DNA of 64,000 nucleotides from Octopus vulgaris (Eukaryota). Location: assembly GCA_951406725.2 (NCBI GenBank), contig OX597816.1:180296001-180360000 (forward strand), in the 5' to 3' direction. Shown piece by piece: positions 11,369 to 63,322 of the stretch. The notes beneath the pieces were generated by a model. The model saw only the letters and a list, made by a program, of their open reading frames with translations, ran no database searches and was not told the DNA's origin. How positions within the stretch are numbered: the stretch's first letter is position 1; the number at the start of each line of letters is the position of its first letter. The position numbers were made by a program, and so were the translations under genes.

Positions 11369-12322
11369 AAAATATATTCAATATTATATTTTACCATCTA
11401 GCAACAAACACAAAGCAATTTAAACTGGACCTTAACCACATTAATCTAATCCAGCCTTCTATCCCATTTCTAGACCTAATGATATTTAAGAAGGTTCTTG
11501 GCTTTCCACTTTTAAAAGTAACTCATAGAAATGTATTTCTTCTCTGCTCCATTCTTCTATCAATGTCTCTCACTGTGTCTACACATGTTCTCTACATATC
11601 TCTTTACATGATACACACCATATTATCACTAGTCATGGCAAACCATTCCTTAGTTTGTGATATTCGTTAAATTTTTTGCTCTACACCTGATAAAAATCTA
11701 TTTAGCAGTGAACTGCAATTGACCTTATAGCATAATTATGCCACTGATGTATTTTCTAGCAATAGTAAGCTGATAAATAGTCTTAGATATCAGAGACCCC
11801 ATAAATCCACAATCCATTATATTGCTGAACAATTTGGTACAGCAATTTATCTCATTGCTGAAAAACAGTTACAATTTGCAAGTTATTCTTGACATGCATT
11901 TTCGATAAATAAACTTCAGCTTTTAACACATCTGTTTGAAGAAAACTGATTATATTTCATTACTCTATTTTTTTCTTTCTCCTTTCTGTTTTGGTATTGT
12001 AAAGGTGCTGTTGTTAGTTAATCCCAGATCACCTCTGATCCAGCAAACTTATAATAAAAAAAATGTTCCAGCTGTGATCAACCTATCTTTCATTCAAATA
12101 TAACATATTGCGTATCTAGGATGGGGGACGGTCTGATTAATCTGTCAGCCTTTTTTTTTTTCTGTTAAAAGCAACTGGTTGATTCCTTATGAAGTCTTGT
12201 TTTAAACTTTAAATACAATGTAAGTGCAGAGATAATTTAACTCTCGGAAGATGAATGAATGGCTGGGCTATGACTAATGTCTACGGGAAATAACTAAGCA
12301 AAAAATAGACTACATCTTGAAT

Positions 12323-12734
12323 AGGCGCAGGAGTAGCTGTGTGGTAAGGAGCTTGCTTACCAACCACATGGTTCCGGGTTCAGTCCCACTGCATGGCATT
12401 TTGGGCAAGTGTCTTCTACTATAGCCTCGGGCCAACCAAAGCCTTGTGAGTGGATTTGGTAGACGGAAACTGAAAAAAGCCCATCGTATATATGTATATA
12501 TATATATGTGTGCGTGTATGTTTGTGTGTCTGTGTTTGTCCCCCTAGAATTGCTTGACAACCGATGCTGGTGTATTTATATCCCCGTCACTTAGCGGTTC
12601 AGCAAAAGAGGCCGATAGAATAAGTACTAGGCTTACAAAGAATAAGTCCCGGGGTCGAGTTGCTCGACTAAAGGCAGTGCTCCAGCATGGCTGCAGTCAA
12701 CTGACTGAAACAAGTAAAAGAGAGAGTAAGAGTA
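12323..12734 (+). mobile_element. Young full-length SINE family A (tRNA-derived, bipartite, central TA/TG microsatellite)
   Basis: aggcgcaggagtagctgtgtggtaag (A box-like), gggttcagtccc (B box-like), CpGs retained, ends gactgaaacaagtaaaagagag. Confidence 0.9.
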
Positions 12735-16596: not shown

Positions 16597-17808
<1,212 letters not shown>

Positions 17809-27092: not shown

Positions 27093-27436
27093 CAAGATTA
27101 ACAGACCTAGACTGTATAAAGGTGATAGACTGTCACACACTTTCTAATGAGAAAAGAGAGAATCAACATTATCAATAACTGTTATATATATTTATGTGTA
27201 TGTTTGTCCCACCACTTTCAATTGGCAACTGATGTTGATGTGCCTCCTTAATTTAGCAGTTTCGCAAAAGAGGCTAATAGAATAAGTACTAAACTTACAG
27301 AGAATAAGTCCTAAGGCTGATTTCTTCATCTAAAAACCATTTAAGGTAGTGCTCCAGCATGGGCACAGTTGAATCACTGAAGCAAGTAAAAGTACGAGTA
27401 AAAGAATATACATATATATGTTTCATATTTAAGTCT

Positions 27437-27600
27437 AGGTGCAAGCATGGCTGTGTGGTAAGAAACTTGCTTCCCAACCACATGGTTCCAGGTTCAGTCC
27501 CACTGCATGTCACCTTGAGCAAGTTCTTCTACTATAGCTTTGGGCTGACAAAAGCCTTGTGCATGGATTTGGAGACAGAAACTGAGAGAAGCCCATCATG
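27437..27600 (+). mobile_element. 5' half of the SINE family A copy split by the Helitron cluster
   Basis: Head runs to gaagcccatcatg-(TA)n; the 3' half resumes near 34760. Confidence 0.85.
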
Positions 27601-28128
27601 TATATATATATATATCTCTTATTATAAAAGGCAGATTTTATCTGCCTCCCTTTGGGAGTTATACAAATCTACAATATAGGATTTCTTCAATTACAATTTA
27701 CCTAGCATTTTTAAGAGTACAATGCATCGCGTCATGCCAGGTCCAGTTTTTAAAATTTAAACTCCAATTAAGCAAAATTTACAGAAAACTCACATTCTGG
27801 TGTGTGTGTCAAATGCTTTTCTTAGTCTGGTTTACACCACACGCAAACGCACACACACACAGTGGGCAACGAATAAAATGAAAGTAAATTCACTTACTGT
27901 AGTGAGTGATTCTTTCACTCTGCCTCCCACTTCCGCTTTCCACACATAGACACGCAAATATATAAATAAAATTGTAAGCTAACGTGCATGTGTGTGAGTG
28001 TGTGTGTGTGTGTGTGTGTGCGCGTGTGTGTGTGTGTGTGAGGGTGTGTGTGTGTGTGCGTGTGCATGAGTGTGTGACAGGAAAGTTTTTTACGACGAAT
28101 ATAACACCTATATCCAAGTAGCAGAAAG

Positions 28129-28394
28129 ATAAGACAGTAAGGTGTGATTTGAGGGAGATTTGGCTGCTATTTCTACCATGTCTAGCTGCCATGTAGGGGT
28201 CTCCCTCATAGGTTCATACATACATATATACATAGATAAGACAGTAAGGTGTGATTTGGGGCAAATTTGGCTGCTATTTCTACCAGGTCTAGCTACCATG
28301 TAAGAGGTCCCCCTCATTGGCTCATATATATATACATACATAAGACAGTAAGGTGTGATTTGAGGGAGATTTGGCTGCTGTTTCTACCAGGTCT
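28129..28394 (+). repeat. ~105-bp x3 sub-repeat (also in units 2 and 3), derived from a dispersed repeat
   Basis: ataagacagtaaggtgtgatttg at 28129, 28236 and 28340; related motif also near 6685, 22455(-) and 63740(-). Confidence 0.9.
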
Positions 28395-28744
28395 GTTAGG
28401 CCTTCGCATGTAAACTCAAGCTTTCTCATGCCTTGAACATAAGACCAAAGCAGAGAATGTATTCTTTTATTCTTCTGCTTTTTCCAGCCATTGGTCTGTG
28501 GCCATGCTGGGGCAATGCCTTGAAGAATTGTAGTTTAATGAATCAACTCCAGTTTTATTTTTATAAGCATTGTACTTATTCTATCTGTTTCCTTTGTCAA
28601 ACCACTAGGTAAACAAACCAACATTCGTTGTCAAGCAGTGGTGGAGGACAATCACAAGCACAGACATGCACACACACACACATACATGCATACACATATA
28701 CACACATACATACATACATATATATATATGTGTGTATATATATA

Positions 28745-29002
28745 TTGCAGCGTGGAAGGTGTTTCTAAGCCATTTAAGAAACACACAAAAACCCTTACAT
28801 TCACTTCAACATTTAAATTTAATTTGCCAAAATATTTTCGTCGCTTTGAGACCGCGACCTGTTCACTGACAAAAATATCATGCTAACAGGTCGTGGTCTC
28901 AAAGCGACGAAAATATTTTGACAAATTAAATTTAAATGTTGAAGTGAATCTAACGTTTTTGTGTGTTTCTTAAATGGCTTATAAACACCTTCAACGCTGC
29001 AA
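28745..29002. mobile_element. Penelope-like inverted pLTR fragment (arms ~118 bp, 21-nt spacer), copy 1
   Basis: 28745-28863 is the reverse complement of 28885-29002; contains a hammerhead motif; further copies at 31074-31332 and 33421-33680. Confidence 0.75.
28823..28873 (-). ncRNA. Minimal type I hammerhead ribozyme motif, G3-C8 core variant (copy 1)
   Basis: UUUGUCA-GUGAACA-G-GUCGC-ggucucaaa-GCGAC-GAAA-AUAU-UU-UGGCAAA: stem I of 7 bp, stem II of 5 bp, palindromic stem III. Confidence 0.7.
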
Positions 29003-29164
29003 CTGTTTTCGTTCCAGCACACGATCTCAGATCAAGTCACTTGCTATGCAAGTACATCTCTGTAACTATATATATATTTATATATATATATATATGTATA
29101 TTGGTAAAAACAGTAAGATAACAAAAGAAAGAAAGAGACCTCAATATTATGTAAATAGAGGAAA

Positions 29165-29559
29165 TCTTTATATATAAAAGTGAGGTTGTGTGTCTGTCTC
29201 CTACGATTTAGATTCCTAACTACTCCCACATTTTGCGGTGCAGTTTAACCAAAACCGGGTATCTTATAGTCGTGATTCATATCGAGACCGTCTGGGTATT
29301 AGCGCGCGTCTACGATGAGTCTACGATTTAAAAAAAAATTTACCATCAATTTTTCCCATTTTTAATCCATTTTTGACATATATAAGGGAAGTAACTCTCT
29401 AAAATTTATTATTAAATCTCAGAACGTAAAAAGCTACAGTAACACCCCTCCCCCTTTGTGGTTAGCCATATTGAGATGGCTATTATACTTTACATCTCTA
29501 AAAATGCTTATATAATTATTTCCCTTACAAACCCGAGCAACGCCGGGCGATACTGCTAG
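29165..29559 (+). mobile_element. Non-autonomous Helitron C (395 bp), copy 1
   Basis: a|TCtttatatataaaag 5' end; 3' hairpin cccgagcaacgccggg plus cgatactgCTAG. Confidence 0.9.
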
Positions 29560-31151
29560 TCATATCTATAAAAGGAAGGATGTTTATGTGTATACGTGAT
29601 TGTAATTTATGCACGTCCACAAATTAGCAGACATGTCACTCCAATTTTAGGAGGATATTCTCCAACACCCTATCTGGGTTTTCTCAACTTATTTTTTTCC
29701 CCGAGGCACCCGTGGTTAGCGTAAATATCTATTTTCAGACATAGCTTTTAGCCACAAAAAATATCAGCCTTGATATTTACTTCAGTGAAAATCGTGTTAA
29801 TCTACAAATTTAACAACATTTTTTCCATTCATTTCTGTTTATGAACATGTATGCGTGCACAAAACATGCAATAGGTGTACGTACGTACGTGTATGTATGT
29901 GTGTTCGTGTCTGTTGCCTATAGATATTTATATTATATTATATATCTCTTATTATAAAAAGCAGATTTTATCTGCCTCCCTTTGTCAGTTATGGAAATCT
30001 ACAATATAGGATTTCTTCAATTACAATTTACCTAGCATTTTTAAGAGTAGAATGCATCGGGTCATGCCAGGTCCAGTTTTTAAAATTTAAACTCCAATTA
30101 AGCAAAATTTACAGAAAACTCACATTCTGGTGTGTATGTCAAATGCTTTTCTTAATGTGGTTTACACCACACGAAAAGGCACACACACAGTGTGCAACGA
30201 ATAAAATGAAACTAATTCACTGTGTGTGTGTTGACAGGTAGACAATAGAATGCAATGGCGATGGCGATGGCGATGTAATATTTGTTTCTGTCTATCACGC
30301 TGATAGATACATGAGTAAAATGTATGGCAAGCTAAGGGATAAGAGTGAGTGAAAATGTTCTTGGAAGAGAGTAAATAGCGAGAGTGATTTGAGGAAGACT
30401 TTACATTAAATAACCGTAGTGGCTTGTATATATATATATATACATACATAAGACAGTAAGGTGTGATTTGAGGGAGATTTGGCTGCTATTTCTACCATGT
30501 CTAGCTGCCATGTAGGGGTCTCCTTCATAGGCTCATACATACATATATACATAGATAAGACAGTAAGGTGTGATTTGGGGGAAATTTGGCTGCTATTTCT
30601 ACCAGGTCTAGCTACCATGTAAAGGTCCCCCTCATTGGCTCATATATATATACATACATAAGACAGTAAGGTGTGATTTGAGGGAGATTTGGCTGCTGTT
30701 TCTACCAGGTCTGTTAGGCCTTCTCATGTAAACTCAAGCTTTCTCATGCCTTGAACATAAGACCAAAGCAGAGAATGTATTCTTTTATTCTGCTTTTCCA
30801 GCCATTGGTCTGTGGCCATGCTGGGGCAATGCCTTGAAGAATTGTAGTTTACTGAATCTACTCCAGTTTTATTTTTGTAAGCATTGTACTTATTCTATCT
30901 GTTTCCTTTGTCAAACCACTAGGTGACAGGGATGTAAACAAACCAACATTCGTTGTCAAGCAGTGGTGGAGGACAATCACAAGCACAGACACGCACACAC
31001 ACACACATACATGCATACACATATACACACATACATACATACATACATATATATATATGTGTGTATATATATATTGCAGCGTGGAAGGTGTTTGTAAGCC
31101 ATTTAAGAAACACACAAAAACCGTTAGATTCACTTCAACATTTAAATTTAA

Positions 31152-31202
31152 TTTGCCAAAATATTTTCGTCGCTTTGAGACCGCGACCTGTTCACTGACA
31201 AA
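31152..31202 (-). ncRNA. Hammerhead motif, G3-C8 variant (copy 2)
   Basis: Same 51-nt sequence as copy 1. Confidence 0.7.
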
Positions 31203-31404
31203 AATATCGTGCTAACAGGTCGCGGTCTCACAAGCGACGAAAATATTTTGACAAATTAAATTTAAATGTTGAAGTGAATCTAACGTTTTTGTGTGTTTCT
31301 TAAATGGCTTATAAACACCTTCAACGCTGCAACTGTTTTCGTTCCAGCACACGATCTCAGATCAAGTCACTTGCTATGCAAGTACATCTCTGTAACTATA
31401 TATA

Positions 31405-31447
<43 letters not shown>

Positions 31448-31510
31448 TGGTAAAAACAGTAAGATAACAAAAGAAAGAAAGAGACCTCAATATTATGTAA
31501 ATAGAGGAAA

Positions 31511-31905
31511 TCTTTATATATAAAAGTGAGGTTGTGTGTCTGTCTCCTACGATTTAGATTCCTAACTACTCCCACATTTTGCGGTGCAGTTTAACCAAAA
31601 CCGGGTATCTTATAGTCGTGATTCATATCGAGACCGTCTGGGTATTAGCGCGCGTCTACGATGAGTCTACGATTTAAAAAAAAATTTACCATCAATTTTT
31701 CCCATTTTTAATCCATTTTTGACATATATAAGGGAAGTAACTCTCTAAAATTTATTATTAAATCTCAGAACGTAAAAAGCTACAGTAACACCCCTCCCCC
31801 TTTGTGGTTAGCCATATTGAGATGGCTATTATACTTTACATCTCTAAAAATGCTTATATAATTATTTCCCTTACAAACCCGAGCAACGCCGGGCGATACT
31901 GCTAG
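31511..31905 (+). mobile_element. Non-autonomous Helitron C, copy 2
   Basis: Same termini, 395 bp. Confidence 0.9.
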
Positions 31906-33498
31906 TCATATCTATAAAAGGAAGGATGTTTATGTGTATACGTGATTGTAATTTATGCACGTCCACAAATTAGCAGACATGTCACTCCAATTTTAGGAGG
32001 ATATTCTCCAACACCCTATCTGGGTTTTCTCAACTTATTTTTTTCCCCGAGGCACCCGTGGTTAGCGTAAATATCTATTTTCAGACATAGCTTTTAGCCA
32101 CAAAAAATATCAGCCTTGATATTTACTTCAGTGAAAATCGTGTTAATCTACAAATTTAACAACATTTTTTCCATTCATTTCTGTTTATGAACATGTATGC
32201 GTGCACAAAACATGCAATAGGTGTACGTACGTACGTGTATGTATGTGTGTTCGTGTCTGTTGCCTATAGATATTTATATTATATTATATATCTCTTATTA
32301 TAAAAAGCAGATTTTATCTGCCTCCCTTTGTCAGTTATGGAAATCTACAATATAGGATTTCTTCAATTACAATTTACCTAGCATTTTTAAGAGTAGAATG
32401 CATCGGGTCATGCCAGGTCCAGTTTTTAAAATTTAAACTCCAATTAAGCAAACTTTTACAGAAAACTCACATTCTGGTGTGTATGTCAAATGCTTTTCTT
32501 AATGTGGTTTACACCACACGAAAAGGCACACACACAGTGTGCAACGAATAAAATGAAACTAATTCACTGTGTGTGTGTTGACAGGTAGACAATAGAATGC
32601 AATGGCGATGGCGATGGCGATGTAATATTTGTTTCTGTCTATCACGCTGATAGATACATGAGTAAAATGTATGGCAAGCTAAGGGATAAGAGTGAGTGAA
32701 AATGTTCTTGGAAGAGAGTAAATAGCGAGAGTGATTTGAGGAAGACTTTACATTAAATAACCGTAGTGGCTTGTATATATATATATATACATACATAAGA
32801 CAGTAAGGTGTGATTTGAGGGAGATTTGGCTGCTATTTCTACCATGTCTAGCTGCCATGTAGGGGTCTCCTTCATAGGCTCATACATACATATATACATA
32901 GATAAGACAGTAAGGTGTGATTTGGGGGAAATTTGGCTGCTATTTCTACAAGGTCTAGCTACCATGTAGAGGTCCCCCTCATTGGCTCATATATATATAC
33001 ATACATAAGACAGTAAGGTGTGATTTGAGGGAGATTTGGCTGCTGTTTCTACCAGGTCTGTTAGGCCTTCTCATGTAAACTCAAGCTTTCTCATGCCTTG
33101 AACATAAGACCAAAGCAGAGAATGTATTCTTTTATTCTGCTTTTCCAGCCATTGGTCTGTGGCCATGCTGGGGCAATGCCTTGAAGAATTGTAGTTTACT
33201 GAATCTACTCCAGTTTTATTTTTGTAAGCATTGTACTTATTCTATCTGTTTCCTTTGTCAAACCACTAGGTGACAGGGATGTAAACAAACCAACATTCGT
33301 TGTCAAGCAGTGGTGGAGGACAATCACAAGCACAGACACGCACACACACACACATACATGCATACACATATACACACATACATACATACATACATATATA
33401 TATATGTGTGTATATATATATTGCAGCGTGGAAGGTGTTTGTAAGCCATTTAAAAAACACACAAAAACCGTTAGATTCACTTCAACATTTAAATTTAA

Positions 33499-33549
33499 TT
33501 TGCCAAAATATTTTCGTCGCTTTGAGACCGCGACCTGTTCACTGACAAA
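33499..33549 (-). ncRNA. Hammerhead motif, G3-C8 variant (copy 3)
   Basis: Same 51-nt sequence as copy 1. Confidence 0.7.
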
Positions 33550-33752
33550 AATATCGTGCTAACAGGTCGCGGTCTCACAAGCGACGAAAATATTTTGACA
33601 AATTAAATTTAAATGTTGAAGTGAATCTAACGTTTTTTGTGTGTTTCTTAAATGGCTTATAAACACCTTCAACGCTGCAATTGTTTTCGTTCCAGCACAC
33701 GATCTCAGATCAAGTCACTTGCTATGCAAGTACATCTCTGTAACTATATATA

Positions 33753-33795
<43 letters not shown>

Positions 33796-33858
33796 TGGTA
33801 AAAACAGTAAGATAACAAAAGAAAGAAAGAGACCTCAATATTATGTAAATAGAAGAAA

Positions 33859-34253
33859 TCTTTATATATAAAAGTGAGGTTGCGTGTCTGTCTCCTACGA
33901 TTTAGATTCCTAACTACTCCCACATTTTGCGGTGCAGTTTAACCAAAACCGGGTATCTTATAGTCGTGATTCATATTGAGACCATCTGGGTATTAGCGCG
34001 CGTCTACGATGAGTCTACGATTTAAAAAAAAATTTACCATCAATTTTTCCCATTTTTAATCCATTTTTGACATATATAAGGGAAGTAACTCTCTAAAATT
34101 TATTATTAAATCTCAGAACGTAAAAAGTTACAGTAACACCCCTCCCCCTTTGTGGTTAGCCATATTGAGATGGCTATTATACTTTACATCTCTAAAAATG
34201 CTTATATAATTATTTCCCTTACAAACCCGAGCAACGCCGGGCGATACTGCTAG
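33859..34253 (+). mobile_element. Non-autonomous Helitron C, copy 3
   Basis: Same termini, 395 bp, followed by T. Confidence 0.9.
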
Positions 34254-34387
34254 TATATAATATAACTAATTTAAATGGATTTCGCCCAAATTTGACATCT
34301 ATATTACTTAGTTTGGTTTGAAATAAAGAACTTGATTAGCTTAATAATCGTAACTTAATCCCGGGCAAGGCCACGTTATACTGCTAG
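34254..34387 (+). mobile_element. Additional Helitron 3' terminus
   Basis: cccgggcaaggccacgttatactgCTAG|t. Confidence 0.75.
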
Positions 34388-34746
34388 TATATATATAAAG
34401 CTGAAGTTGTCTGTGTATGGCAGGTTTGGTAGCCTTCAACTAACACTATCTCATCCGAGACCCTGTGGTGCAAGTTGACCAAAATAGAGAGTATGATAGA
34501 AGAAGGCTTGCTCTTCCTTCCGTAGAAGAAAAAATTATTTACTTCAAAAAGGTGCTTTTTTTCTATGAAAATCCCTATTTTTTACGATTATTTGACTGCT
34601 GTGTCACCATATTTCGGTGTATTTCAACGAGAAAAATGTTCACTTATAGAGAATAACAAGCTACATAATGCAAAATTTTTACTTTTCAAAAATTCCCTTT
34701 CTAAAGGGTCGAAACAAACCCGAGCAACATTGGGCGATACTGCTAG
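34388..34746 (+). mobile_element. Non-autonomous Helitron D
   Basis: tatatataaagctgaag...cccgagcaacattgggcgatactgCTAG|t; homologous to 61009-61408(-). Confidence 0.85.
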
Positions 34747-34759
34747 TATATATATATAT

Positions 34760-34950
34760 ATTTATTTGCCCTCCACCCACTTGACAATCAATGCTGGTGT
34801 GTTTATGTCCCTGTAATTTGGCAGTTCAGCAAAAGAGATTAATAGAATAAGTACTAGGCTTACAAAGAATAAGTCCTGGGATTGATTTGTTCGTCTAAAG
34901 GCGGTGCTCCAGCATGGCTGCAGTCAAATGACTGAAACAAGTAAAAGAAT
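34760..34950 (+). mobile_element. 3' half of the split SINE family A
   Basis: ttgacaatcaatgctggtgtgtttatgtccc...gactgaaacaagtaaaag. Confidence 0.85.
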
Positions 34951-35625: not shown

Positions 35626-37120
35626 ATCATCATCATCATCATTTAACATCTGTTTTCCATGCTGGCATGGGTTGGACGGTTTGACTGAGGCCTGGAGAGC
35701 CAGCGGCTGCACCAGGTTCCAATCTGATCTGGCAGTGTTTCTACAGCTGGATGCCCTTCCTAATGCTAATCACTCCAAGAGTGTAGTGGGTGCTTTTTAC
35801 ATGTCACTGGCACAGGAGCCAGTCAGGCAGGCCTGGTAATGATCATGTTCGAATGGTGCTTATTAAGTGCCAACTGCACAGGAGCCAGTAAGGGGCTACT
35901 GGCATCAGTCACAATCGGTTGGTGGTTTTTTTGTGCTACCAGCGCAGTAGTCAGTCTGGGGGTACTGGCATTGGCCACGTTTGATTGGTGCTTTTCACGT
36001 GCCACTGGCGCAGGAGCCAGTCAGGTGGACCTGGCATTGACCACATTCAGATGATGCTTTTTACATGCCACCGGCACAGGAGCCAGAAACTGAAAGAAGC
36101 CCATCATGTATATATATATATATCATATCTATAAAAGGGAGGATGTTTATGTGTATACGTGATTGTAATTTTCTACCCACACCTTTTCTACAGTCAGGGG
36201 CATCAGCCCCAGCTACAGTATTGGTTTTACTTGACTTAATAGGTCTTTTCAAGCATATCATATTGCCCAATGCATCAGGGCTATTCTTAACAGGGCTGGA
36301 CATGTGTGGCTGCGATCTCACTTTAGTTGCCGGGTCTTCTCAATCACAGCATATCTCCAAAGGTCCCGTTCTCCTGTCATTGCCTCTGTGAGGCCCAGTG
36401 TTCGAAGGTCATGCTTGACCACCTCATCCCATGTCTTCCTGGGTCTAACTCTTCCACAGGTTCCTTCTACAGTTAAGGAGTGACACTTCCTCACACAGCT
36501 GTCTTCATTCATACATAATGCATGACCATACCAGCACAGTCGCCTCCCTTTCACACCACATTTGATGCTTCTTTATGCCCAACTTTTCTCTCAGGGCACT
36601 TACACTCTGTCATGTATGCACACTGACATTACACACCCAGCAGATCATACTAGCTTCATTTCTTTCAAGCCTACATATGTCTTCAGCATTCATGGCTCAT
36701 GTTTCACTGCTGTGTAGCATGGCAATTTGCACACATGCACCATACAGTCTACCTTTCACCTTGAGCGAGAGGCCCCTAGTTGCCAGCAGAGGTAGGAGCT
36801 CCCTGAATTTTGCCCTGGCTATTCTTACTCTAGTCACTACACTCTCAGAGCAACCCACTACAGACTTGGTCACCAGGTAGCAGAAGCTATTAAACTACTA
36901 GTTTCTTCCCCTGGCATGAGATGGAATCTGTTTTCTGTACATCTTCAGTGTTTATTGCCCCTGTGCATCTGCCACACACAAAAACTATTTTCCTAGTTAA
37001 CCTTCCTTTGATTATCTTTCATGTGTCCATAGCTTACACCGGGTACATCGTATGGAGTTTCTACCCACACCTTTTCTACAGATTGGGCAGGACCATCTAC
37101 CTGAAGTGGGTTGTAATTTG
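35626..37120 (-). mobile_element. RTE-type LINE 3' portion (decayed RT C-terminus plus repeat-containing 3' UTR)
   Basis: ORF 36318-36554 RRLCWYGHA.CM...GRVRPRKTW...DLWR is the typical RTE ORF end; (CAT)n tail at 35626. Confidence 0.9.
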
Positions 37121-37905: not shown

Positions 37906-38696
37906 TGCACACATGATGAGCTTCTTTTAGTTTTCATCTACCAAACCCACTCTGAAGACATTGGTTAACATGGAAGAGTGGGCATTAAATGATGATTTAT
38001 ATAAAACTTTAAAATGTTTAATTCCATTTTATTAAATGTTTTTAACATATTACAAAATAATACATACTGCATATAAATAATTTTTAAAATGCCTGATCCA
38101 AAATGCCTGATGTTCAAAACATAGAAAATCCAAAGACTATTTCATTTTAAAAATATTATAAAAACAGTTAAAAGTTTTTTTTTAAGATAATCCTCACAAC
38201 ATCTAAGTAGAATGAAAATGGCATCCAAATAGAATTGATTTTCAAGATTCCTCAAAAAATAGCTAATCATGTGGTGACTTTATACTAATAAGCATAGGTG
38301 CTAGAATAGCTCTGTTGATAGCAAGCTTGCTTTGCAACTACATGTTTTTTGAGTTTGAAGTTCAATCCCAGTGCATAGCACCTTTGGCAAGTATCTCTAG
38401 GTCAACCAATTCCTTGTAAATGAATTTGGCAGACAGAAACTGTGTGGAGGCCTATTGTGTGTGTGTGTGCATTTATACTTGGATCCATTCCACTGCTTGA
38501 CAACAGGTGTTGGTTTATTTATATCCCCATAGCTCAATAGTTCAGCAAAGGAGGTTTGTAGAAAAAGGATCAGACTTCAAATAATTAGTATTGGAATGAA
38601 TTTCTTTGACCCTAACCTTTCAAAACATTGCCTTGGTATTCCCGCAGTTGAAGGACTGAAATAAGTATCGGTTAAAGATAAGCATACAAATATATA

Positions 38697-39056
38697 CACC
38701 ATCCGAGCGTGGCCGTTCGCCAGCCTCGTCTGGCACCTGTGTTGGTGGCACATAAAAACACCATCCGAGCGTGGCCGTTCGCCAGCCTCGTCTGGCACCT
38801 GTGTCGGTGGCACATAAAAACACCATCCGGGCGTGGCCATTCGCCAGCCTCGTCTGGCACCTGTGTCGGTGGCACATAAAATCACCCACTACACTCTCGG
38901 AGTGGTTGGTGTTAGGAAGGGCATCCAGCTGTAGAAACACTGCCAGATCTGACTGGCCTGGTGCAGCCTTCGGGCTCCCCAGACCCCAGTTGAACCGTCC
39001 AACCCATGCTAGCATGGAAAGCGGACGTTAAATGATGATGATGATGATGATGATGA
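38697..39056 (+). mobile_element. Young RTE-type 3' end with 62-bp x3 tandem repeat
   Basis: caccatcc at 38697, 38759 and 38821; CpG-rich; (GAT)n tail. Confidence 0.9.
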
Positions 39057-47347: not shown

Positions 47348-48470
47348 TCTCTCTCTATATAAACGGCAGTTTGTCTGTGTGTGTTTCTGTGTGTCTGTTT
47401 GGTTGTACCCCCACTCTGACCACGGCTTTCAACCGATTCTGATGAAACTTGACACACACATAGCCCAATGTCATAATTCAAAATTAACGCAGCGAAAATT
47501 TTGAAAAGTTCCCCCAGTTCTGAAAAAAAATTGATAAATTCGACATGGGGTCGAGAATCAGAAACACAAACCACAGACTGTCTAGGGGACGCAACTCGGC
47601 GTCATTTTTGACAGCACGAGTTCAGCTACTGTTTAAATAATGAATAACAAACCGCAACTTGACACATCTGTAAAGTATTTGATAACAAATGATGTGTGTG
47701 TGTGTGTGTTTGTGTGTGTTGACCAGAAAATACAGCGTCCTTGCTACCATATTTCGTAACGAGTGACATGTTGAGCGAAAATTTGTAACGAATGACATTT
47801 TTAATGCAAATAACGTTTCTTGACTTTCATATTTTTAAGAAAATCTTTATATATAAAAGACAAGTTGTGTGTCTGTCTCCTACGATTTAGATTCCTAACT
47901 ACTCCCACATTTTGCGGTGCAGTTTAACCAAAACAGGGTATCTTATAGTCGTGATTCATATCGATCCCTTCTGGGTATTAGCGCGCGTCTACGATGAGTC
48001 TCTATCATTATATATAGTTTAAACTTTAATTTCCTTTATATTTAACATTCACTATTAATATCCCTACTCTTTCTGTTAGCTACTTATGACGTTATATCAT
48101 ATAACGTTTTTTTAAACAATATTAATAGCGTTCTGTCTATCGCTATATGAATCCATCATTTTTTGTTAAAATGTCGTATTGACGAGTTTCGTTTTTTCAC
48201 TTTCCCGAAGAGAAGATTGCATTGTTTATACCTTTTATTCTTTTGAATAAGTATCAGTGGAATTTTCGAAACATATGTAGAAAGTAAAAATACTTGTTTA
48301 AACCTGCATTAACTCCATTTTTTATTCATATTATTCAAAATATTCAACGTAAACACGAAGTTTCAACCTTTATAAACAAGGAGTTACAACATCTTTACTT
48401 GTGAGATTTTTGCTGCCCTGGTAACTATTTATTTATTTTTCCGTGTTAATTGTTAACAAGGTAAAATACA
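47348..48470 (+). mobile_element. Helitron-like 5' region with a nested Helitron C 5' fragment (47844-48003)
   Basis: a|TCtctctctatataaacggcagtttgtctgtgtg start; 47844 onward matches 29165 onward; no 3' CTAG hairpin seen and the right boundary is uncertain. Confidence 0.6.
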
Positions 48471-50269: not shown

Positions 50270-50920
50270 CATTATCATCATCATTGTTTAACATCCATTT
50301 TCCATACTAGCATGGGTTGGACAGTTTGACTGAGGACTGGTGAGCTGGGAGGCCACACCAGGCTCCAATCTGATTTAGAAAAGGTTTCTACAGGTGGATG
50401 CCTTTCCTAGCACCAACTACTCCAAGAGTGTAGTGGTTACTTTTTATGTGCCATCAGCACAGGAGCCAGTCAGGCAGAACTTGCATTGGCCACACTCAAA
50501 TGGTGCTCTTTATGTTCCACTGGCACAAGAACCAGTCAGGTAGTACTGGCATTGCCACAACTACAATTTCACTTGGTTCAACAGGTCTTCACAAGCATGG
50601 CATATTGCCTGATGATTGAAGGGTATTTTTAAATAGGCTGGTTATGCAACACTGGCATCATCCATGGCTACAATCTCACTTGGCTTGCCAGGTCTTCTCA
50701 GGTACAGCATATCTCCAAAGGTCTCGGTCACTTGATATTACCTCTGTGAGACCCAACGTTCAAAGGTCATGCTTCACCACCTCATTCTATGTCTTCATAG
50801 GTCTACCTCTTCCACAGGTTTCCTCCGTTGTTAGGGTGTGATACTTCACACAGCTGTCCTCATCTATATGCAACACATTACCATATCAGCACTGTCATCT
50901 CTCTTGCACACCACATCTGT
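50270..50920 (-). mobile_element. RTE-type LINE 3' fragment
   Basis: Collinear with 35626-36560. Confidence 0.88.
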
Positions 50921-61008: not shown

Positions 61009-61408
61009 CTAGCAGTAGCGCCTGGCGTTACTTGGGTTTGTTTCAATCCTTTAGAATTGCAATTTTTGAAAAGTAAAAAATTTGCATTATGTAGCTTGTT
61101 ATTCTCTTTAAGTGAACATTTTTCTGGTTGAAATACACCGAAAAATGGTGTATTCAAAGCAGTCAAAAAATCATTAAAAAATAGCAATTTTCATAGAAAA
61201 AATGCACCTTTTTGATGTAAATAATTTTTGGTGTTAACATGGTCCAATTTAAAATTTTTCTTCTATGGAAGGAAGAGCAAGCTTTCTTCTATCATACTTT
61301 CAATTTTGGTCAACTTGTGCTGCAGGGTCTTGGAGGAGATAGTGTTAGTTGAAGGCTACCAAACCTGCCATATACAGACAGCTTCAGCTTTATGTATATA
61401 TAGAGAGA
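61009..61408 (-). mobile_element. Complete non-autonomous Helitron D
   Basis: Minus strand a|TCtctctatatatacataaagctgaag...cccaagtaacgccaggcgctactgCTAG|t. Confidence 0.88.
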
Positions 61409-61513: not shown

Positions 61514-61902
61514 TCTTTACTCTTTTACTTGTTTCAGTCATTTGACTGCGGCCATGCTGGAGCACCGCCTTTTAGTCGAGCAAATCGACCCCGGGACTTA
61601 TTCTTTGTAAGCCCAGTACTTATTCTATCGGTCTCTTTTGCCAAACCACTAAGTGACGGGGACATAAACACACCAGCATCGGTTGTCAAGTAATGCTAGG
61701 GGGACAAACACAGACACTCATATATATATACATATATATGACGGGCTTCTTTCAGTTTCCGTCTACCAAATCCACTCACAAGGCATTGGTCGGCCCGGGG
61801 CTATAGCAGAAGACACTTGCCCAAGATGCCATGCAGTGGGACTGAACCCGGAACCATGTGGTTGGTTAGCAAGCTACTTACCACACAGCCACTCCTGCGC
61901 CT
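61514..61902 (-). mobile_element. Young full-length SINE family A
   Basis: Near-identical reverse complement of 12323-12734; possible tacctc TSD. Confidence 0.9.
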
Positions 61903-63322
61903 ACCTCAATATAATATCTTCAGTTAATTTTTTCTTTTAATCAGAAAAGCTAGGCAGTGCCACTGTCCCCCTCCCCTCTCTGTGGTTGTTGAAACCAGTG
62001 TGGTTGATGTTCAGTTCCTGAACACTACAATTCTTGATAGAAAATATAGGGAACGAAATATTATAGTGTGGAATTTGGTAGGTAGGAGACAGAAGGGATA
62101 ACAAAAGAAGGGAGAAACCATATAAAACTATGACGAAAGTAGCTTACGACTTCCTATTTCAGAGAGTAGAGACTGTTATAGTAATGGCAAAAGAATTATG
62201 GAGGAGAAAAAGCACAGCCATGTGCTTGCTGTGGTTGTAGTGTGTTTGTGAGTCAGTGTTTGAGTGGTTAGAGTATGTTGATGGATGGATTTTACAAATC
62301 AAATGTTTTTACAATTTCTCCTAAATAATGTAGTTTGCATCTTAGTTTTTTTACATTTTATTAAGGTTTCTTATTAGATTGCTAATGTTTTTTCTTAAAA
62401 AAGCCATAACACATCTGTCATCAAGCTTCTCTTCAACACTCAGAGCAGTGAATAAATTGTACGTTAACACGTTCCTTCGACACCTGGATTATTTATCATA
62501 TTTGCTTCTGGCTTCATCAGGTAATAATATGCTACAAATAGAATTCATCAGAGAAAAAGACTCTAGGTTATTCCTAATTTGAGTATAATTATCAAATTTG
62601 TTAACTGTCTGCTAGAGGTTTTCCACAGTATTTGTGATTGTACTAACATTCATATGACTCCAGGTCTAAATGATGAATAGTTCAGTGTCTGCAATAACTT
62701 TTCCAGAAATTTAGCTTTGTGTTCAACACTTCATATTCTATAGTATTCATTAGCTAAAAACCATCTTCGAAATACCTTGTGGTTAACATCCCCTAAACCT
62801 CCTTCTCCTCTTTTCCATTTACCCCATTTTTCACTGAACTAACACTCTTGTAGGAGTTACACATTGCACCACACCCCCACCTTCCTATTGCAGGTTCATC
62901 CAACTTCATTTCTATCTGTTATATTGATGTACTAAGGTCCTTACATTATAGGGTGTGTGTGTGTGTGTGTGTGTGTGATCAGAGATGGTTGAAAGGTTAG
63001 AAGTTTGCTTCACAAACATGGACACCTGCATTCAATTCCGTTGTGCACTCTCTGCATGTATCTTTTATGATAGCCTCAAGCTGGTCAGAGTTATAAGAGA
63101 AATGGTTCGAGGTGAAACTGTGGATTTCCATTGGAAAATATGTAGATGGATTGTAGATAACAAGCTTTGTCATACACACTGTTATACTAAATCTGCCTAA
63201 AAATTGTAAATGATGCATGTGACTTTGAAACACTCGACTCTTTACATGCAATTAGTGAATGGATCTCTTGTTTAAAAATCAGAAACACTCATTGTAGAAA
63301 CCAGCATGAGACCCTTCGGTCT

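Follow-up and report, generated by a model that had tools for sequence, protein, structure and literature searches.

A tandem of 2.35-kb units in Octopus vulgaris is likely to have arisen through repeated insertion of Helitron-type elements at one spot and later unequal crossing-over, and not by one rolling-circle burst. The tandem belongs to a cluster of ~7.1 kb (27615-34746; coordinates are those of the window, meaning the whole 64,000-nucleotide stretch analysed) that interrupts a single SINE within its TA run. The 5′ half of this SINE, ending in (TA)7, forms the left flank (27436-27614, plus strand, 84.5% to 12322-12502 and 61903-61723), and (TA)7 followed by its 3′ half forms the right flank (34747-34948, plus strand, 87.6% to 12553-12721 and 87.7% to 61691-61521). 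The SINE copies at 12322-12502 and 61903-61723 run uninterrupted into their tails, unlike the host SINE head.

Layout of the cluster and its termini

All features described here lie on the plus strand unless stated otherwise. The first unit, U1 (27615-29559, 1945 bp), is a composite, Q1, made of the B1 head, which is a Helitron-type 5′ end starting with TC (27615-27894), a U1-specific segment X (27895-28128), a tail shared with the other units, and element C with its hairpin-CTAG end. X stands where the other units carry a segment Y, has no other non-microsatellite match in the window, and joins the tail directly at ATAAG, with no TA spacer. The U1 cargo within the shared tail (28129-29164) comprises a ~105-bp sub-repeat (2.7 copies per unit), a minus-strand SINE 3′ half (in each unit, 70-77% to other copies in the window), a ~260-bp palindrome with 103-nt arms (also in each unit), a TA run and a 66-bp A-rich piece. 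Element C (395 bp, reading A/TC...hairpin-CTAG) follows at 29165-29559, with further copies at 31511-31905 and 33859-34253, and all three are preceded by A.

U2 (29560-31905, 2346 bp) and U3 (31906-34253, 2348 bp) begin with the TC start of a different element, the 385-bp 5′ part of A (31906-32290, with an identical twin at 29560-29944). This is followed by a second TC 5′ end of type B (B2, starting at 29945 and 32291), Y, the tail and C. In U3, B2 through C makes up a 1963-bp composite, Q2 (32291-34253), which lies inside element A with an A at 32290 and a T at 34254. Beyond it are Z (34254-34387, 134 bp), which is likely the 3′ part of element A and carries a weak hairpin and CTAG, and element D (34388-34746, 359 bp, 82% to 61400-61009 on the minus strand), with a hairpin-CTAG end. 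The second 5′ end, sub-repeat, SINE half, palindrome and nested C ascribed to each unit by a first-pass annotation were all located; the range given there, 27615-34387, leaves out element D and the host SINE halves. The palindrome had been called Penelope-like, a name that examination for ORFs and against Rfam did not support: it has no ORF, and there is no hammerhead among the 11 Rfam hits on 28780-30960. Those hits all fall below the gathering score, are mostly miRNA hairpins on the palindrome, and were judged to be chance.

The elements of the stack are non-autonomous (gene-less), Helitron-type and of four kinds. A TC start after an A or a CTAG is true of A, B and C; D at 34388 has no TC start, and its relative at 61400 has one. 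Ends of the CTRR type, ACTGCTAG, occur at 29559, 31905, 34253, 34387, 34746 and, on the minus strand, 61009; the one at 34387 had already been noted and the one at 34746 is additional. Both U1 (A at 27614, T at 29560) and Q2 read TC...hairpin-CTAG with an A before and a T after, and neither shows a target duplication; no true empty allele came to light. The C 3′ hairpin (-4.5 kcal/mol) sits where canonical Helitrons have a GC-rich hairpin, ~11 nt from the 3′ end, although its z score is -1.0 and 29 of 200 shuffles are as good; the terminal hairpins of Z (z +0.4) and D (z -0.05) do no better against shuffles, and the one at 34387 is weaker than that of C. A 5′ copy of element C (158 bp, 95.6%), preceded by an A, lies at 47844, and within the window there are no dispersed copies of A, B or Q with matching termini. 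No stop-to-stop frame in 27.4-36.4 kb is over 121 aa, and the ORF list of the window contains nothing transposase-sized outside microsatellites. An exact-pattern scan of metagenome contigs for the A 5′ motif gave no match, nor did a pattern scan of viral, metagenome and prokaryote genome contigs for the degenerate 3′-end motif. Part of 27400-34800 is contained in 19 of the 24 sequencing runs listed (best share 0.71, 8 studies), which were not used as evidence. Helentron and Helitron2 elements are characterized by a TT 5′ end, subterminal inverted repeats and a TT target; membership in that group was rejected because the ends here are TC and CTAG at A/T.

Unit comparison, element A and the 36087 patch

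That units of 2346 and 2348 bp are joined exactly as hairpin-CTAG/TC was borne out. In the whole window the junction GCTAG/TCATATCTATAAAAG is confined to 29559/60 and 31905/6, and both joins are exact 3′-to-5′ with no host bases between units. Because each end coincides precisely with an element terminus, simple tandem duplication through random breakpoints was discarded as an explanation. Between U2 and U3 there are 10 substitutions and two 1-bp indels (99.5% identity); the tails of U1 and U3 are separated by 21-23 substitutions over ~1430 bp, and U2 diverges by only ~0-0.3% from its two "parents". Among 30 variable tail sites, private changes number 20 in U1, 0 in U2 and 10 in U3, and the count for U2 has a binomial probability of 5e-6, which rises to 8e-5 when one ambiguous site is credited to it. 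Left of 31232 there are 14 U1-private and 3 U3-private substitutions, and right of it 0 and 6. U2 is accordingly a mosaic that is U3-like on its left and U1-like on its right (Fisher 0.0008; permutation p 0.0024 for substitutions and 0.003 with indels), with the switch between 31232 and 31505.

The polarity count omits 2 of 23 substitution sites (30622 and 30792), where indel alignments are ambiguous, and several site polarities depend on a single outgroup. Three left-part sites are shared-derived in U2 and U3, compared with 0 of 6 right-part sites in U1 and U2, four of these six being of ambiguous polarity. The microsatellite lengths of U2 and U3 are equal, an odd result given the substitution distance between them, and one that puts the TA run at 31409 on the U3 side. 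The B heads (14 substitutions and 3 gap columns between B1 and B2) diverge by 5% and the tails by 1.6%, a contrast for which the Fisher p of 0.0005 was calculated with 15 head substitutions where the direct count is 14. We conclude that the units are of two different ages and that U2 is recombinant, as from an unequal crossover.

The end of the A 5′ part and Z form a split 24-bp palindrome (a 12-nt perfect inverted repeat). In a test chosen after the sequence had been seen, only 2 of 41,424 A-ending window positions matched this inverted repeat with Z besides the trivial self-match, and the other left partners for Z gave arms of 0 (X), 0 (Y), 1 (the 66-bp piece) and 6 nt (the SINE head), against 12 for A. 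Element A is likely an element of 385+134 bp split at the palindrome centre by a B-to-C composite, and because its two parts form the palindrome, 34387 would be the outer element's own 3′ end. The proposal that the last unit extends to the original 3′ end at 34387 is supported; a three-unit rolling-circle concatemer is not.

A patch of 107 bp (36087-36193) inside a unit of the 66-bp repeat consists of a SINE-head end, 49 bp of the A 5′ end and ~24 bp more. Its 44-mer has 2 mismatches to 27571-27614 and at least 6 to the other seven SINE-like matches listed, and it joins the SINE-head end to the TC of A with the same (TA)7 as at the locus. The last ~24 bp are identical (24/24) to 37058-37081, 0.9 kb away, and the host 66-bp-repeat unit resumes at 36194. 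The sequence suggests that the patch is likely a templated repair copy of the locus's own former SINE/A junction. CATCATG is also present in two other SINEs of the window, and the source might be another SINE/A locus. The A-end copy at 36122/36123 had been offered in support of TCATATC as a true 5′ end; the end itself is supported, but the copy is a 49-bp stub within the patch and does not look like an insertion in its own right.

Proposed order of events and alternatives

We consider the chances about even that a pair of B-to-C composites entered sites 385 bp from each other, one of these being A's own A/T, and that a crossover then made the middle unit. The splitting of the SINE by the cluster is the step seen directly. 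Element A would have lain directly behind the SINE head, a junction that the 36087 patch appears to record. A 3′-truncated B start may then have continued across ~1 kb of old repeats as far as the hairpin-CTAG of C, given that Helitron read-through to a downstream terminator is established in the available text of PMC4778049, and composite use of two Helitrons' ends is likewise described (PMC4224331, in part). The product would be a mobile composite, Q, whose mobility we infer, as the window contains neither Q1 nor Q2 a second time. Q2 would have entered the A/T at the centre of the palindrome inside A. In the weakest step, Q1, with its different B head, would have entered the A/T formed by the last A of the SINE and the first T of A; the greater divergence of the B heads than of the tails means that Q1 requires its own head-swap event. 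Finally, the SNP pattern suggests that an out-of-register exchange between Q1 and Q2 would have yielded U1-U2-U3, with the switch in a palindrome arm or the TA run (31232-31505). Transposase would be supplied in trans, none being encoded here.

Insertion at an A/T made of a flank and a resident TC gives CTAG/TC without a concatemer. With stacked insertion, every 5′ and 3′ end of the stack gets a partner; U1 starts with B and not A, and the split palindrome of A and Z is essentially unique in the window. Helitrons are known to insert near Helitrons (review, PMC12477314). Against stacked insertion, near-identical composites 385 bp apart are unlikely unless Q was abundant, the right part of U2 lacks sites shared-derived with U1 and its microsatellite lengths equal those of U3, and no local hopping was observed for Helraiser in the portion of PMC4778049 available.

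The leading alternative, one Helitron-made duplication in place followed by crossover, is possible, though we think it rather unlikely. Transposase would nick at the TC of A and stop at the intact hairpin-CTAG of C, 134 bp before the weaker end of A, and the resulting 2.35-kb circle would re-enter the donor by homology or at the A/TC boundary, with unequal crossover again producing U2. A separate B would later have entered the 5′ boundary so formed, and the 3′ part of B together with A-B2-Y of the first unit would have been lost in a deletion reaching from X to the sub-repeat. This accounts for the neighbouring copies and for the last unit keeping the 34387 end, and the hairpin of C folds better than that of Z; the TA spacer adjoining the deletion end is a plausible break site. 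Pairing of the A 5′ end with the C terminator, as first proposed, may hold for one such duplication step. Helraiser circles with exact end-to-end junctions have been shown (PMC5876387). However, the scheme requires an unseen deletion of >0.9 kb whose end coincides exactly with the first base of the sub-repeat, together with a boundary insert that by chance matches the family of the internal head (B), and U1 taken at face value already forms a full TC...CTAG element at A/T.

It is improbable, if compatible with any origin of U1, that assembly or polishing created the middle unit (a haplotype misjoin) and that the real allele is U1-U3. U2 would then be expected to look as it does, with no private change and the microsatellite lengths of U3, but what separates U2 from U3 is chiefly transitions (C>T or G>A in U3 at 6 of 10 sites) rather than errors of the indel type. 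The window, free of N, includes a 1.18-kb TA array; this hints at reads exceeding the 7-kb cluster in length and argues against such a product.

We give slightly less credence still to templated repair, whereby a full B would have inserted at the 5′ boundary of A (CTAG/TC), a break would have been repaired by copying the 1.43-kb tail of Q2, with entry at microhomology and exit via a ~30-bp 3′ end common to the families, and a crossover would have given U2. C and D do have 33 terminal bases in common at 91%, and the 36087 patch itself appears to be local templated copying from the region, yet two precise switches are required. A single rolling-circle concatemer of an A-to-C composite, with three units made at once as the first-pass annotation had it, draws on the two exact CTAG/TC junctions, the 99.5% identity of U2 and U3 and the arrays described in bats, plants and flies, but it is very improbable given a 1945-bp U1 that starts with the TC of B and lacks the A 5′ end, the unequal divergences and two ages, a mosaic U2 without private changes, and a circle that, ending at C, could not supply the 34387 end.

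Known systems and significance

Neighbouring Helitrons of maize in head-to-tail order, as described in the available part of Du et al. 2008 (PMC2267711), have the same exact CTAG/TC, produced by consecutive insertion at a host A plus the resident's first T; the maize pair is unrelated, whereas here the composites are related, enclose a 385-bp spacer and later underwent expansion. Tandem arrays of Helitrons, including those of plants, have been interpreted as rolling-circle concatemers (Pritham and Feschotte 2007 and work on plant arrays, as cited in PMC2267711, PMC5876387 and PMC11934779), and a tandem array is reported for Helitron-1_DPe (10.1101/2021.06.02.446622). As far as these excerpts describe them, such arrays share with this locus perfect end-to-end junctions, kb-size units and few copies, but here the first unit has another 5′ end, the units are of two ages and the middle one is recombinant.

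Seeding of satellites by double insertion and unequal exchange, in which two nearby copies, a dimer, are the substrate for gain, is set out in the accessible text of McGurk and Barbash 2018 (PMC5932611). "Helitron" has 0 matches in that text, and the junction marker used there is the target-site duplication, which Helitrons do not make. Composite or multi-terminus Helitrons (HelibatN539, PMC4224331; nested origin, PMC3288121; Helraiser read-through, PMC4778049) also use one 5′ end with another's 3′ end and have several termini per unit and captured flanking DNA, so far as the consulted portions go; the cargo here is old repeat debris with no gene fragment, and the mobility of the composite is presumed.

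The locus carries neither a gene nor any sign of function. Repeat growth of this kind is a known phenomenon, and the general ideas are already published in the cited parts of PMC2267711 and PMC5932611; greater importance would follow only if exact 5′-boundary targeting were common genome-wide. It is doubtful, though conceivable, that Helitron transposase targets the A/TC nick site of a resident element, so that new copies pile up precisely on older 5′ ends. If so, many "rolling-circle concatemer" arrays would be stacks plus crossover, and this locus would be a fossil of each step, its repair patch keeping the pre-insertion junction. Head-to-tail CTAG/TC junctions are often regarded as proof of rolling-circle concatemers, and SNP phasing among units together with a nearby repair patch can distinguish a concatemer from stacked insertion and unequal crossover. 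The locus also shows how the formation of a satellite from Helitron debris can begin.

Tandem units and their contents

The cluster contains two full units in tandem, U2 (29560–31905, 2346 bp) and U3 (31906–34253, 2348 bp), separated from each other by 10 substitutions and two 1-bp indels. The exact CTAG-TC joins claimed by the first-pass annotation were confirmed, as were both unit lengths, by sequence and scripts: GCTAG is followed directly by TCATATCTATAAAAG at 29559/60 and 31905/6. Furthest left lies U1 (27615–29559, 1945 bp), whose final 1.43 kb (the tail) is all that it has in common with U2 and U3. It starts with the second 5′ end (B), in a head that shows 14 substitutions and 3 gap columns against the B head of U2, and has middle X where U2 and U3 have middle Y. 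Across the 888-bp part running from element A through the second B head to Y, U2 and U3 are one event apart. Within the tail lie a 105-bp sub-repeat, half a SINE in minus orientation, a palindrome of 260 bp and element C; the annotation had also noted these parts and the second 5′ end.

The CTAG terminus reported at 34387 also exists, as the end of Z (34254–34387), a piece directly 3′ of U3. Z is followed by element D (34388–34746), which is 82% identical to a full relative at 61400–61009 (minus strand) with a TC start and a CTAG end before T, near an intact SINE copy (61521–61903). Within the window, the near-perfect palindrome of ~260 bp (28745–29002 in U1, with counterparts in U2 and U3) occurs only in the three tails. 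A 5′-only copy of C (47844–48001, 158 bp, 95.6%) is preceded by A and has no 3′ end. The 3′ hairpins lie at the expected position and fold no better than shuffles, and the ORF listing gave no long ORF in the cluster region.

A mosaic middle unit

Three-way alignment of the tails gave 30 variable sites, 20 private to U1, 10 to U3 and none to U2, with one ambiguous site assignable to U2. On the left side of position 31232 in U2, 14 substitutions were private to U1 and 3 to U3; to the right the counts were 0 and 6 (Fisher 0.0008; 0.0024 by permutation over cut points with 5000 shuffles, or 0.003 when indels are included). Of the 23 substitution sites, 21 were polarized by outgroup. In the left part, 8 were derived in U1, 3 shared-derived in U2 and U3, 2 derived in U3 and 2 without assignable polarity; in the right part, 2 were derived in U3, 4 lacked assignable polarity and none was shared-derived in U1 and U2. 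By these patterns U2 is a mosaic; unequal crossover between the U1 and U3 tails would yield exactly U1, a U3-left/U1-right unit, and U3. The switch would fall between 31232 and 31505, in a palindrome arm or TA run; this interval starts inside the right arm of the tail palindrome. Counting against a crossover are the equal microsatellite lengths in U2 and U3 and a right half supported by identity alone.

Element A and the host SINE

A perfect 12-nt inverted repeat links the last bases of the 5′ part of A (up to 32290) with the start of Z. Such an arm was reached at only 2 of 41,424 A-ending window positions, trivial self-match aside: the tested end and its twin of identical sequence, 29944. Other candidate partners gave arms of 0, 0, 1 and 6 nt; the test itself was picked with the sequence already in view. 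By inference, A measures 519 bp and was interrupted at an A-T site by Q2 (32291–34253), a B-to-C composite.

The SINE 5′ half stops at 27614 in (TA)7 and the 3′ half restarts after 34746. Because both halves match consecutive stretches of uninterrupted copies (12322–12502 and 12553–12721; 61903–61723 and 61691–61521), the entire 7.1-kb cluster is a stack within the TA run of one SINE. Elsewhere, a (TA)n array of 1.18 kb (about 588 copies) occupies 16623–17805, and a 62-bp tandem (×3.1, 96% matches; 38696–38886) lies within a copy of another dispersed repeat.

The A-like copy at 36123 had been taken as support for TCATATC as a true 5′ end; it does support this, but matches A over just 49 bp, inside a patch. 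The preceding 44 bp show 2 mismatches to the cluster's own SINE head end, with (TA)7 identical, and 6 or more to each of the other 7 SINE-like matches listed; the following 24 bp are identical to 37058–37081. The 107-bp patch (36087–36193) breaks into one 66-bp repeat unit: in the four units upstream the shared motif leads into TCAG or TAAG, and the interrupted one resumes TCAGGGG at 36194. The two locally matching pieces of the patch have short matches at both joins, and the patch resembles a locally templated break-repair insertion. The 36123 copy is likely a record of A once directly behind the cluster's SINE head, and U1 would then lie exactly at that A-T boundary. Another SINE-A locus could also be the source of the patch. 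The 66-bp tandem (×4.5; 35789–36086) lies within a further copy of the dispersed repeat that holds the 62-bp tandem; a dispersed repeat fragment at 36225–36593, 74–77% similar to 50567–50919 and 48805–48529, may be LINE-derived.

Origin of the tandem and related arrays

We favor, at about an even chance, a history in which U1, a putative B-headed composite, inserted at the boundary of A, putative composite Q2 inserted inside A, and crossover then made U2. CTAG-TC would arise without any concatemer because a host A plus the resident's first T is a valid target, as Du et al. argued for adjacent maize Helitrons (PMC2267711). Other studies document read-through and composites that combine the ends of two elements (PMC4224331, PMC4778049, PMC3288121) and growth by dimer then exchange (PMC5932611). 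The weak point is the need for two related composites to land 385 bp apart; Helraiser showed no local hopping (PMC4778049), though a review says that Helitrons insert near Helitrons (PMC12477314). The main rival, which is less likely, is that a circle running from the TC of A to the terminator of C re-entered the donor, with B insertion and deletion afterwards; it keeps the annotation's core idea for one step, and circles are shown in PMC5876387. It is rather improbable that U2 is artefactual, which would be compatible with any other origin, and templated repair is a slim possibility. The rolling-circle concatemer originally claimed, with three units made in one step, is very improbable: U1 begins with B, U2 appears mosaic, and the CTAG-TC junction needs no concatemer.

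Exact targeting of resident 5′ ends by new insertions is unlikely; it rests on one solid boundary insertion at the cluster, the D junction being ambiguous because D has no TC start. Exact-pattern scans of public contig collections gave no match, and no title on a cephalopod Helitron tandem array came up in literature searches. The repeat landscape of the window resembles that of an octopod genome, and PMC13282606 reports Helitrons with recent activity in Octopus vulgaris (8 families, 178 insertions). Helitron tandems are described in bats, plants, flies, frogs and cnidarians. Helitron tandem arrays are a phenomenon known from other animals and plants, and the present locus is one more case.
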